DNA of 64,000 bases from assembly GCA_023443725.1 (NCBI GenBank), contig JAEZTF010000010.1:29948-93947 (forward strand), read 5' to 3'. The notes beneath the pieces are model-generated. The model saw only the letters and a program-made list of their open reading frames with translations. It had not been told where the DNA came from and did not search any database. This DNA comes from Candidatus Parcubacteria bacterium. GTDB lineage: Bacteria; Patescibacteriota; Microgenomatia; UBA12405. The position numbers and the translations under genes are program-made. Shown one piece after another: positions 5,140-60,551 of this stretch (positions are counted from its first letter, which is position 1; each line of letters starts with the position of its first letter).

Positions 5140-5210
5140 GCGGCTATAGTTTAGTGGTAAAATGTGTCCTTCCCAAGGATAAGTCGAGGGTTCAATTCCC
5201 TCTAGCCGCT
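5140..5210 (+). tRNA. tRNA-Gly (anticodon CCC).
   Basis: Cloverleaf by eye: acceptor GCGGCTA/TAGCCGC, anticodon loop TTCCCAA, T-loop TTCAATT. No encoded CCA. Confidence 0.8.
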
Positions 5211-5225
5211 CTCTTTTTATATTAG

Positions 5226-5296
5226 GCCGATATAGTTCAACGGCAGAACTGCGGTTTCGTAAACCGTCGATGGTAGTTCGACTCTACCTATCGGCT
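5226..5296 (+). tRNA. tRNA-Thr (anticodon CGT).
   Basis: Acceptor GCCGATA/TATCGGC, anticodon stem GCGGT/ACCGT, loop TTCGTAA, T-loop TTCGACT. Confidence 0.8.
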
Positions 5297-12833: not shown

Positions 12834-12909
12834 TGGTGGTCGCTACAGGACTCGGACCTGTGACAACCGCAATGTGAATGCGGTGCTCTACCAACTGAGC
12901 TAAGCGACC
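12834..12909 (-). tRNA. tRNA-Val (anticodon CAC) with encoded CCA.
   Basis: Reverse complement GGTCGCTTAGCTCAGTTGGTAGAGCACCGCATTCACATTGCGG...AGCGACCACCA folds as a canonical cloverleaf. Confidence 0.8.
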
Positions 12910-57787: not shown

Positions 57788-58747
57788 ATGGAATTAATAA
57801 AAAAGATTTTTAAATCAAAAATATTGAGGTTGATTTTTTCGGTGGCATTAATTTATTTTGCTTTTAGAAAAGTAGATATCAAAAGTTTATTGAGCCAATT
57901 AATAGGAATTAAATTATGGTTTGTGTTGGTGGTTTTGGTGATTTCTTTAATATTAAACTTATTAATTTCTTTTCGTTGGAGTCTACTTTTAATTAAGAAA
58001 CCAAAATTTAAAGATGTATTGGTGTTTTTCAAATCGAGTATGATGGCCTCGTTTTATGGTTTAATTTTACCTTCTGCAGCAGCCACAGATGTGGTTAAGT
58101 GGTTGTTGATAGATCAAAAATATCCTCAAATACCAAAAAGTAAAATGCTAGGTTCAGTTTTTTTGGATAGAGTAATTGGATTATCAACTTATATTTTTGT
58201 GGGTTTAGTATTTATTTTAATAGCTAAATCAAAAGGTATTTTGATTCCAGATATGATTTTTTATGCCATAGTTTGTTTAGTAATAGGGTTTATTGTTTTT
58301 TATGTTTTTATTTATTTCTTTGATCTTAAAAAAACAATTTTTAGATTTAAAATTTTTAAAAAATTTGAAAGCGTTGGTGAATTGGTCAATAGAGAAAATT
58401 TACCTCAAATTTTTAAGGGAATGTTGGTGGCGGTTTTTAGTGAATTTGGTTGGGTGCTGCAAACTTGGTTTATCTCTTGGTACTTTGGGGCTAATTTAAG
58501 CGTTTTTTCTATCTTAGTTTATATTCCAATTATTTCTTTGATATTAATATTACCAATTTCAATTGCTGGTTTTGGAGCTAGAGAACAATTATTTTTATTT
58601 TTCTTTTTGCCAGTTGGGGGAAAAGCGGAAGGAGTTTTGTTAACATCAGCATTTGGAGGGATATTGGGAATATTAATTTCTTTATTGGGAGGATTAATTA
58701 CTTTAACTCCTGAATTTAAAAATAATTTAAAGGATAAATTAAAATGA
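57788..58747 (+). CDS. Flippase-like / lysylphosphatidylglycerol-synthase-TM-domain (UPF0104) membrane protein.
   Basis: Eight TM helices. Its N-terminus ILRLIFSVALIYFAFRKVD is typical of the family, which is commonly found beside GT2 genes. Confidence 0.6.
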   Translation: MELIKKIFKSKILRLIFSVALIYFAFRKVDIKSLLSQLIGIKLWFVLVVLVISLILNLLISFRWSLLLIKKPKFKDVLVFFKSSMMASFYGLILPSAAATDVVKWLLIDQKYPQIPKSKMLGSVFLDRVIGLSTYIFVGLVFILIAKSKGILIPDMIFYAIVCLVIGFIVFYVFIYFFDLKKTIFRFKIFKKFESVGELVNRENLPQIFKGMLVAVFSEFGWVLQTWFISWYFGANLSVFSILVYIPIISLILILPISIAGFGAREQLFLFFFLPVGGKAEGVLLTSAFGGILGILISLLGGLITLTPEFKNNLKDKLK

Positions 58748-59169
58748 ACGAAGATTTTCAAAAGTTCCATATTTCCGTAAAAGGTTTAATAAAATTTGAT
58801 AATTCATTTCTTTTACTCCAAGAACATGATGGTATTTGGGAAGCTCCAGGTGGAAGAGTAAATGAAGGAGAATTATTAAAAGAAGCTTTATTAAGAGAGT
58901 TAAAAGAAGAATTAGATTTTAATTTATCATTAGACGATATAGGAAATTTATTTGAATTTAATCAAAGATATGATTATAAATTGGGTAACGGTTGGTGTTT
59001 GATGACTCTTTTTTTTGAAATTTCATTAAAACAAAAATTGGAAATTAATATTAGTGATGAACATGTTAACTTTGTTTGGGTAAAAAAAGATACTGATTTA
59101 AGTAAATTTGTTTTTAAAAACCCAATTCAAAGAGCTATATTCGAGAATTTTAAAAATAATTTGAAATAA
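58744..59169 (+). CDS. NUDIX hydrolase.
   Basis: Nudix box GIWEAPGGRVNEGELLKEALLRELKEELD. Confidence 0.8.
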   Translation: MNEDFQKFHISVKGLIKFDNSFLLLQEHDGIWEAPGGRVNEGELLKEALLRELKEELDFNLSLDDIGNLFEFNQRYDYKLGNGWCLMTLFFEISLKQKLEINISDEHVNFVWVKKDTDLSKFVFKNPIQRAIFENFKNNLK

Positions 59170-59203
59170 TTGACATTGTTTTGATATTTGTTAAAGTATT
59201 TTT

Positions 59204-59290
59204 AGTTTGTCGAGAGAGTCTTAAAAAAGACTAGCAACCGAGCCTCAAAGGGGTCACGGTGCAATTCCCTACTTGGGAGGACAAGCCTTT
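59204..59290 (+). ncRNA. Candidate SAM riboswitch (SAM-I clan or SAM-I/IV-like variant) in the metK leader.
   Basis: P1 TTTGTC...GACAAG. The junction GAGAGAG matches the SAM-I J1/2-P2 AGAGAGG. The strongly conserved core elements GCAACC and GGTGCAATTCC (SAM-I GGUGCYAAUUCC) are present, and a P4-like hairpin TCCCtacttGGGA follows. It lies downstream of a TTGACA(59170)-16-TAAAGT promoter. Confidence 0.5.
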
Positions 59291-59313
59291 ATAAATTTAA
59301 ATAAAGGAAAAAT

Positions 59314-60432
59314 ATGAATTATTCCCTATTTACGTCAGAATCAGTTTGTGCTGGTCATCCCGATAAAATTTGTGACCAAATTTCAGATACTGTTTTAGAT
59401 ACTGCTTTAGAAATTGATAGAAATTCAAGAGTTGCTTTAGAAACTTTAGTGACCACTAATAAAGTAATAATGGCAGGCGAAGTGACTTGTAGTAAAAAAT
59501 TAGACTATGGACAAATCGCAAAACAAGTAATTAAAGATTTAGGTTATACTAATCCTCTTTTAGGTTTTGATACAAATGCAGACATAGAAGTATTGGTTCA
59601 TCAACAATCAAAAGATATTGCAATTGGAGCCGATAATGACGGTGCAGGTGATCAAGGAATGATGTTTGGTTATGCTTGTAATGAAACACCACAATTGATG
59701 CCATTATCAATTATGTTGTCACAAGAATTATGCAAAAAAATGGATAAACTGCAGTTTGAAAGATTAAATTATTTAAGACCAGATGGTAAGGCAGAAGTGA
59801 CAATTAAATATAATCAAGGAAAACCAGTGGAAATAGTAAAAGTGGTTTTGGCTAAACCAATGGATCTAATAGTTGAAGATACTCAAGCAAAAAAAGATTT
59901 GTATGAATTGGCTGTGTTGCCAATTTTGGAAAAATATAAACTTAATAAAGTAAGCGTAGAAAATGTAATTTTAAATGGTACAGGTAGATGGGAAATTGGT
60001 GGACCAGCAACAGATACTGGAGTAACTGGTCGAAAAATTGTAGTCGATACTTATGGTGGTATGGGACGAATTGGTGGAGGATGTTTTTCAGGTAAAGATC
60101 CAACAAAAGTAGATAGAAGTGCAGCTTATGCTGCTAGATTTATTGCCAAAAATGTAGTGGCTGCAGGATTGGCTGATCGTTGTGAAGTCCAATTGGCCTA
60201 TGTAATTGGTGTTAGAGATCCAATTTCAAAAGCAATTGAAACTTTTGGAACAAACAAAAAAGAAATAAATAAAATTGAAGAATTTGCTTGGAATTTAATG
60301 AATTTATCGGTTAAAGGAATAATTGATAAATTTGATTTAAAAAGACCAATTTACAAAAATACAGCTAGATATGGTCATTTTGGATATGATGAATATCCTT
60401 GGGAACAAATCAAAACCCCTCTGTCTCGATAA
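59314..60432 (+). CDS. metK: S-adenosylmethionine synthetase.
   Basis: FTSESVCAGHPDKICDQISD, GGGCFSGKDPTKVDRSAAYAARFIAKNVVAAGLA. Confidence 0.95.
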   Translation: MNYSLFTSESVCAGHPDKICDQISDTVLDTALEIDRNSRVALETLVTTNKVIMAGEVTCSKKLDYGQIAKQVIKDLGYTNPLLGFDTNADIEVLVHQQSKDIAIGADNDGAGDQGMMFGYACNETPQLMPLSIMLSQELCKKMDKLQFERLNYLRPDGKAEVTIKYNQGKPVEIVKVVLAKPMDLIVEDTQAKKDLYELAVLPILEKYKLNKVSVENVILNGTGRWEIGGPATDTGVTGRKIVVDTYGGMGRIGGGCFSGKDPTKVDRSAAYAARFIAKNVVAAGLADRCEVQLAYVIGVRDPISKAIETFGTNKKEINKIEEFAWNLMNLSVKGIIDKFDLKRPIYKNTARYGHFGYDEYPWEQIKTPLSR

Positions 60433-60472
60433 ATCGAGACATCTCCCCTTGAAAAAGGGAGAAGTCTTAAAA
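60425..60472 (+). terminator. Tandem hairpins after metK.
   Basis: GTCTCGAtaaaTCGAGAC and TCTCCCcTTgaaaaAAGGGAGA are followed by a T-rich tract. Confidence 0.5.
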
Positions 60473-60489
60473 TCATTTTGATGATAAAA

Positions 60490-60551
60490 TTTACTAACTA
60501 AATTATTTATTTATTGCTAATAGCTAATTAACTACTAGCTATTTACTAATC
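60490..60551. repeat. TAGCTA/TAATTA-rich palindromic block upstream of galE.
   Basis: GCTAATAGCTAATTAACTACTAGCTATTTACTAAT is an imperfect inverted partner of 61533..61565. It contains stop codons in all six frames. Confidence 0.55.

Follow-up and report, generated by a model that had tools for sequence, protein, structure and literature searches.

The 64,000-nucleotide (nt) stretch of DNA analyzed here (the window), from contig JAEZTF010000010.1 of a Candidatus Parcubacteria bacterium (GCA_023443725.1), contains at positions 59205-59316 a riboswitch of the S-adenosylmethionine (SAM) clan (Rfam CL00012), which lies directly 5′ of the SAM synthetase gene metK and is closest to the SAM-I/IV family. 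The element, which we read within positions 58800-59700, is not a plain SAM-I/IV member: it is a variant with three traits, being apparently free of pseudoknots, holding the Shine-Dalgarno (SD) sequence of metK in its 3′ hairpin P5, and presenting a G-C pair at the position of helix P1 that faces the sulfonium of SAM. The riboswitch very probably senses SAM and represses the translation of metK by feedback; we infer SAM as its ligand, the OFF direction of its response and the coupling of P1 to P5.

To assign the element to a family, the whole window was scanned with Rfam at gathering thresholds, which returned only three tRNAs and one riboswitch. The latter is a match to RF01725 (SAM-I/IV) at 59202-59323, which covers the full model with 42.7 bits (gathering score 41.1; whole-window E = 0.0014). 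When the 3′ hairpin was left out (59150-59290), the best clan member was RF00162 (SAM-I), aligned over its full length with the model segment for the kink-turn and P2b deleted, and with 25.9 bits, which is below its gathering score of 44.4. A first-pass annotation of this DNA had suggested that the metK leader holds a compact, SAM-I/IV-like representative of the SAM-I clan, and this assignment is supported by the RF01725 score above threshold as well as by the conservation in orthologs described below. Every element that it had listed, namely the promoter TTGACA/TAAAGT, the P1 strands UUUGUC/GACAAG, the AGAGAG sequence (59213-59218), GCAACC, GGUGCAAUUCC, a P4-like hairpin and the metK ATG, was located in the sequence. 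The parts of the leader, the promoter upstream and the gene downstream are the following:

59170-59197, + strand: sigma-70-type promoter, with the −35 box TTGACA at 59170-59175, a 16-nt spacer and the extended −10 box TGT-TAAAGT at 59189-59197
59206-59211, + strand: P1 5′ strand UUUGUC, from the covariance-model alignments, the fold and the ortholog alignment
59212-59215, + strand: junction J1/2, GAGA, from the cmscan alignments to RF01725 and RF00162
59216-59232, + strand: P2, a plain hairpin G-A-GUCUU / AAAA / AAGAC-U with no internal loop, kink-turn or P2b, from the fold and seven compensated pairs
59234-59262, + strand: P3, GC-AA-CCG-A-GCCUC / AAA / GGGGU-CA-CGG-U-GC, which holds the conserved SAM-pocket sequences GCAACC and GGUGC
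59263-59279, + strand: J3/4 (AA) and P4 (UUCCC / UACUU / GGGAG, 59265-59279), a short stem-loop located in the four-way junction
59280-59285, + strand: P1 3′ strand GACAAG, from the alignments and the fold
59286-59307, + strand: P5, CCUUUAU / AAAUUUAA / AUAAAGG, a hairpin with an 8-nt loop that follows P1 with no linker
59314-60432, + strand: metK, an open reading frame (ORF) for a SAM synthetase of 372 aa, with its AUG at 59314-59316

This layout corrects the first-pass annotation on one point, since only one hairpin had been seen in the place of the SAM-I P2 and P3. Both are present: the segment that runs from GCAACC (59234-59239) to GGUGC (59258-59262, the start of GGUGCAAUUCC at 59258-59268) is P3 itself and encloses the distal hairpin GCCUC-AAA-GGGGU (59242-59254), and the hairpin AGUCUU-AAAA-AAGACU (59217-59232) is P2. 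The architecture is indeed reduced, as had been sensed, but the reduction lies in a P2 without kink-turn, P2b or pseudoknot and not in a fusion of P2 with P3, and it is a known trait of SAM-I/IV. Moreover, one hairpin with the SD in it had been missed, namely P5, CCUUUAU-(8 nt)-AUAAAGG at 59286-59307.

The minimum free energy (MFE) fold displays the four-way junction P1-P4 followed by the 3′ hairpin (z = −3.05 vs shuffles), and G59205 is able to extend P1 by a G-C pair with C59286. An outer helix found in the first fold (“P0,” 59196-59203 with 59309-59316) was dropped, because the −10 box (59192-59197) is probably not transcribed. The pattern AGAG..GCAACC..GGTGC is found once in the 64-kb window, and 100 dinucleotide-preserving shuffles produced no match to it. 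In the SAM-I structure, G11 and A12 touch the methionine part of SAM, and the conserved pocket positions include G43 C44 A45 (A46) C47, G56 U57 G58 C59 and the pair U7-A87 (PMC3764141). The equivalents of G11 and A12 in the window RNA are G59214 and A59215, and the pair U59210-A59281, aligned to conserved model positions, corresponds to U7-A87. Altogether, positions G11, A12, C44, A45, C47, G56, U57, G58, C59 and U7-A87 of the pocket are intact.

We then compared the metK leaders of related genomes. The contigs encoding 12 relatives of the window MetK (66-87% identical to it) were fetched and gave 11 distinct leaders from Shapirobacteria-like Patescibacteria (L161-L167, L169, L171, L174 and L177), that is, 12 leaders with that of the window. 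The 11 leaders have a common order, in which a TTGACA promoter is followed by P1 (UUGUC/GACAA), J1/2 (A/G/U)AGA(G/A), a plain P2, P3, P4, GACAAG, a hairpin containing the SD, A4-5(U) and the AUG. The 5′ strand of P1 is invariant in the clade, with the exception of L171 (AUUGUU); P2 is in all 12 leaders a plain hairpin of 5-9 bp with loops mostly of 3-6 nt; P3 in the orthologs reads (A/G)(G/A)CAACCGAG, then a distal hairpin, then (U/C)C(A/G)CGGUGC; and P5 is present in 12/12 leaders, pairing the SD in each. Regarding the motif conservation on which the first-pass annotation had relied, (A/G)(G/A)CAACCGAG and CGGUGC are found in 12/12 leaders, but the AAUUCC that follows GGUGC in the window is not conserved. 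The promoter is conserved as well. In the window, its boxes match the consensus at 10/12 positions, with the TG extension present upstream of the −10 box TAAAGT at 59192-59197; in the orthologous leaders, TTGACA and a TAnnnT box recur, at a constant distance to P1. Deduced from this conserved promoter, transcription probably starts at about 59204-59205, i.e., 1-2 nt 5′ of P1.

The helices were supported by covariation, as the first-pass annotation had suggested could be looked for across metK leaders, with P2, P3 and P4 all covarying. The counts given here rest on 11 of the 12 leaders, L177 having been left out. On a plain MAFFT alignment, RNAalifold recovered all of P1-P5, with 35 predicted pairs, 16 of which show compensatory changes. 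In the alignment made with a covariance model of the clade, 93.7% of the cells form standard pairs, as compared with 38-51% when the partners are slid by 1-3 columns, and the observed covariation score was reached by none of 500 shuffles. Pairs with double changes number 7/7 in P2, 6/13 in P3 and 3/4 aligned in P4 (clade-model alignment); in P3, the compensated pairs are found in the distal hairpin, the proximal part being invariant. P1 is also invariant, so that covariation neither supports nor contradicts it. The apparent invariance of P5 in the clade-model alignment is an artefact of a 2-nt misregistration: read directly, P5 exists in three subtypes, CCUUU:AAAGG, CCUCU:AGAGG and CCUCUU:AGGAGG, in which the anti-SD strand tracks the SD. 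This covariation shows that the element is a real, selected RNA structure. Furthermore, the 12 leaders show little or no variation at the unpaired nucleotides of the pocket (AGA of J1/2, GCAACC and GGUGC) against a background of drifting, compensated helices, which is a signature of selection for ligand binding that goes beyond the maintenance of a mere hairpin.

With regard to known SAM riboswitches, the RNA resembles SAM-I/IV by its SAM-I-type pocket, its undivided P2 without kink-turn or P2-loop pseudoknot, its internal P4 (optional in SAM-I/IV), its P5 right after P1, its location directly 5′ of a gene for SAM metabolism, the lack of a terminator, and its score above the gathering threshold. 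In the SAM-I/SAM-IV variant described by Weinberg et al. 2010 (PMC2864571), the P2 internal loop is absent and the P2-tip pseudoknot is probably absent too; the consensus of their alignment has P1-P3, a hairpin that may or may not separate P3 from the P1 3′ strand, a further hairpin beyond P1, and a pseudoknot that joins the loop of P3 to the 3′ tail. The crystallized 4L81 sequence (PMC5393176) contains P1, P2, P3, an internal P4 and P5 parts, and the SAM-I/IV crystal structure (4L81, Trausch et al. 2014), in the passage that Zhang et al. 2019 (PMC6890682) devote to it, has an undivided P2, no pseudoknot PK-1 (P2 loop with J3/4), a P4, and a P5 and a pseudoknot PK-2 (P3 loop with 3′ tail) in common with SAM-IV. 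The window clade differs from SAM-I/IV in several respects. PK-2 is not detectable; P5 is A/U-rich and supplies the SD with its 3′ strand, whereas in published SAM-I/IV RNAs P5 is usually G/C-rich and the SD lies 3′ of P5, beside or within the PK-2 strand; the P1 pair mentioned above is G-C in place of A-U; most members of the clade go undetected by the Rfam model; and the host belongs to a Patescibacteria lineage, not to a marine or free-living phylum. SAM-IV (RF00634) shares with the window RNA the clan, the pocket logic, a P5 after P1 and probable translational control, but it has a P2 internal loop with PK-1, it has PK-2, and it has no internal P4 (PMC6890682), the window RNA being the opposite in all three.

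The pseudoknots were examined by computational tests of canonical pairing, to which non-canonical tertiary contacts are out of reach. For PK-2, the most stable pairings of the P3 loop with the 3′ tail were close to the shuffle means in 10/11 leaders tested, the exception being L165, with a loop:tail duplex of −9.5 kcal/mol, and their positions were inconsistent. The P3 loop has only 3-4 nt in 8/12 leaders (AAA, AGCU, UUUA, AGCA, AAUU, UUU, UGAU and UAAA). A candidate PK-2 formed by the P3 loop AGGGG and UCCCU in metK codons 4-5 was rejected, as it is not conserved. For PK-1, the duplex energies in the leaders were no better than those of shuffles, and complementarity beyond chance was likewise absent from the leaders for the loops of P3 and P5, P2 and P5, P2 and P3, and P4 and P5. 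Given that PK-2 was tested and not found, we do not file the RNA as a plain SAM-I/IV member.

A further property of the loops came from the comparison of P2 with the distal hairpin of P3, which are near-identical within single leaders in three lineages, with exact repeats of 22 nt in L162 (GAGUCCCGAUUUAUCGGGAUCA, 494-550), 14 nt in L167 and 8 nt in L164, vs a mean of 4.4 nt and a maximum of 8 between molecules (permutation p about 0.009). The repeated hairpin sequence differs from lineage to lineage, and a weaker counterpart is seen in the window (59216-59233 vs 59240-59256). One of the two hairpins seems to have been copied repeatedly over its partner, for example by template switching between the GAG...UCA flanks. 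Sequence-specific loop contacts are unlikely in hairpins that can be copied onto each other. The repeat of L162 also permits a rod-like alternative fold.

The likeness to SAM-I, for its part, comprises the four-way junction P1-P4, the J1/2 AGAG, the GCAACC/GGUGC of P3, the J3/4 AAUUCC, the association with metK and the full-length RF00162 alignment, and the differences are the lack of kink-turn, P2b and PK-1, the RF00162 scores of the clade (25.9-29.4 bits vs 44.4, far under the gathering score), the translational rather than terminator-based control proposed here, and the G-C instead of A6-U88. It is conceivable, though not probable, that the RNA is a SAM-I (S-box) derivative of the same function that has shed kink-turn, P2b and PK-1, and not a relative of SAM-I/IV. 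P5 would then be an ordinary SD sequestor with no homologue in the P5 of SAM-I/IV, and the RF01725 match would arise because this model tolerates a plain P2 and expects a hairpin after P1. Such a descent would agree with the internal P4 in a four-way junction, with a J3/4 like that of SAM-I, with the end-to-end alignment of RF00162, which is also the best clan match for L169, with the undetectable PK-2, from which SAM-I/IV takes its “IV,” and with an A/U-rich P5 that includes the SD, at variance with the published SAM-I/IV arrangement. It agrees less well with the low RF00162 scores, with a plain P2 lacking PK-1, which is the defining trait of SAM-I/IV (the solved SAM-I/IV RNA having an internal P4, according to the passage cited above), and with the presence of a post-P1 hairpin in the distant locus L002, where it does not carry the SD and is followed by a terminator. 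Whether the RNA is a SAM-I derivative or a SAM-I/IV relative is a question of descent, not of function.

metK is a classic target of SAM riboswitches. Since the gene encodes SAM synthetase, no terminator is present, transcription probably starts close to P1 and the SD lies within P5 at 6 nt from the AUG, translational feedback by SAM is the most likely mode of control. The SD, AAAGGA (59303-59308), is contained in the 3′ strand of P5, its GG being separated from the metK AUG by 6 nt, and the 5′ strand CCUUUAU is the anti-SD; P5 is marginally stable, with −1.6 to −5.0 kcal/mol in the leaders. We propose that the binding of SAM would lock the short, A/U-rich P1, which, once closed, would stack end-to-end on the contiguous P5 and thereby lengthen the helix that the ribosome must open. 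In the presence of SAM, the whole leader would be a compact body offering no single-stranded landing site to the 30S subunit, and initiation would drop. In the absence of SAM, P1 would fray, and the single-stranded strands of the junction may act as a standby site beside a weak, isolated P5 that the ribosome could open.

Other pairings that might connect the aptamer with the SD were considered and rejected. A hairpin between the SD and the coding region (GGAA:UUCC, with the AUG in its loop) appears in the MFE folds of several leaders, but its complementarity is lost in L165, L169, L174 and L177, in which P5 is kept. A three-part switch, in which the P4 3′ strand GGAGG would pair with the anti-SD CCUUU across the P1 3′ strand, would have only 4-6 weak pairs, loses out whenever folding is constrained and has poor pairing in L165, L169 and L171. 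More generally, no conserved competitor for the anti-SD strand was found in the leaders.

Most SAM-I riboswitches of Firmicutes work via terminators, and a terminator follows the aptamer in the distant Patescibacteria locus L002, which would speak for transcription attenuation, intrinsic or Rho-dependent, instead of translational control. For the window RNA, however, no terminator-like site was found in 58900-59500, the 6 nt between the end of P5 and the metK AUG are A5U and not a U-run, and the SD is inside P5 in all 12 leaders. We therefore regard attenuation as extremely improbable and translational repression as the mode of action to be preferred.

The results establish the clan membership of the RNA, its helices with their covariation and the placement of the SD in P5. 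Several observations nevertheless weigh against a SAM-responsive switch of this family. The Rfam threshold is passed by the window copy only, and with a borderline margin; among 10 orthologous leaders scanned, RF01725 gave 39.3 bits for L161 and 35.4 for L164, RF00162 was the best match of L169 with 29.4, and the other 7/10 had no Rfam match at E < 0.1. The RNA appears to be without both PK-1 and PK-2, the pseudoknots that organize known SAM-clan aptamers. The equivalent of the A6-U88 pair is G-C in 12/12 leaders of the clade. In nearest-neighbor folding, the SD is paired both when P1 can form and when it is prohibited, so that secondary structure alone fails to explain how the ligand signal would reach the ribosome-binding site, which makes the stacking and standby step a conjecture. 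Finally, the ortholog L168 (MetK 74% identical; 560-640) has no leader, its metK abutting the end of the upstream LPG_synthase_TM gene.

Three of these observations bear on one rival explanation, according to which the leader would be structured but independent of ligand, either as a relic aptamer or as a constitutive SD mask setting a low basal translation. The SD that is paired in every computed state, the two missing stabilizing pseudoknots and the existence of an ortholog that lives without the leader would all be expected from such an element. Its unpaired pocket nucleotides would not, as they are invariant over 12 lineages amid compensating helices, and we hold this explanation to be highly improbable compared with a ligand-binding riboswitch.

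The G-C pair raises the question of the ligand itself, as Montange et al. 2010 reportedly tied two P1 pairs, A6-U88 and U7-A87, to the discrimination between SAM and S-adenosylhomocysteine (SAH). By alignment, G59209 is at the A6 position and C59282 at the U88 position of the T. tengcongensis SAM-I RNA. The same pair is A-U in 16/16 SAM-I metK leaders among the fetched loci and in 42/43 SAM-I/IV sequences that we read from the published alignment. U88 is one of two uridines whose carbonyls point toward the SAM sulfonium (PMC6914780), and high conservation is reported for A6, U7, A87 and U88 (PMC3764141). A pair that is G-C throughout the clade at so conserved a position (G59209-C59282 in the window) could mean that selectivity has changed or relaxed, such that the RNA would bind SAH as well as SAM, or SAM much more weakly. 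We consider this improbable: all other pocket nucleotides are intact, cytosine retains the O2 carbonyl in the minor groove, and SAM is the signal to be expected for the gene under control, metK.

SAM riboswitches are among the best-understood RNA sensors, and one more of them 5′ of metK is unsurprising; the present one refines a known family and opens no long-standing question. It documents a natural riboswitch in Patescibacteria (the candidate phyla radiation), a group in which little regulation is known, and it indicates that current Rfam thresholds miss most copies of the clade. A bolder and rather doubtful possibility is that the metK leaders of the Shapirobacteria type are a distinct, pseudoknot-free, minimal class of the SAM clan, with a bare four-way junction and with the G-C pair in place of the sulfonium-sensing A-U used by every characterized relative, perhaps with another affinity or SAM/SAH selectivity, and with a signal transmitted by the stacking of P1 on the SD hairpin and not by strand exchange. 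In the SAM-I and SAM-I/IV RNAs studied, a peripheral pseudoknot is thought to be needed for pre-organization of the pocket. If a natural version without either pseudoknot proves true, it would define a minimal working scaffold. The clade-wide G-C at the sulfonium-facing pair offers a natural mutant for probing SAM vs SAH discrimination; the wider importance of the element would depend on whether the minimal scaffold or the G-C pair alters ligand recognition.

Outside these leaders, a search with the clade covariance model (R1) of the window and 171 fetched loci, which left out L170, L172, L173 and L175-L176 as duplicates of L169, L171 and L174, revealed no other copy within the window, nor any member outside the clade. 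MetK-based scans of genome and metagenome contigs found, among the matches listed, almost only MetKs of other phyla with about 50% identity, and no close leaders. The nearest GTDB MetK loci (L001 and others) had no SAM-clan match at the gathering threshold, L001 being without a leader. The only match to the core pattern of the clade in a viral contig (L179:1478-1553) was put down to chance, as it is inside a 413-aa ORF and is without the P1 3′ strand and P5.

A SAM-clan-like leader was nonetheless seen at L002:1218-1382, about 190 nt upstream of the gene at a metK locus of a distant Patescibacteria (MetK 58% identical). It consists of a P1 (AAAUC/GAUUU), a plain P2, a long P3, a short P4, a post-P1 hairpin and then an intrinsic terminator, and it is below every Rfam gathering score. 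The 5′ arm of its P3 includes 12 nt (CCCUUCGGCAAG) with complementarity to the post-P1 hairpin (CUUGUCGAAGGG), perhaps reflecting a contact like PK-2 or else an alternative fold.

As for the gene and its surroundings, a protein search with the window MetK returned many relatives at 66-87% identity, with domains PF00438, PF02772 and PF02773. The named ones belong to Candidatus Shapirobacteria and Woesebacteria, the best being Candidatus Shapirobacteria methionine adenosyltransferases (76-79% identity), which indicates that the window comes from a Patescibacteria genome of the Microgenomates type. The gene order around metK is conserved, with LPG_synthase_TM, (NUDIX), metK, (23S_rRNA_IVP/bAvd-like) and an NAD-dependent epimerase, the parentheses marking two optional inserts (window 58744-59169 and 60433-60551; L161, L162, L165 and L174). 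The NUDIX insert is found in the window and L161 only, and the gene 3′ of metK, which encodes a 113-115-aa PF05635 protein, is found in L161, L162, L165 and L174 and is absent from the window. In the lineage of L168, the riboswitch was either lost or never gained.

Within the window, the 8-mer AUUCCCUA occurs twice, at 59264-59271 (J3/4 and the P4 5′ strand) and at 59321-59328 (metK codons 3-5, UAU UCC CUA). The codons UCC CUA are unusual for an A/T-rich genome and are identical in seven orthologs, in which later codons vary synonymously. The three tRNA genes of the window are at 5140-5210 (+), 5226-5296 (+) and 12837-12909 (−).

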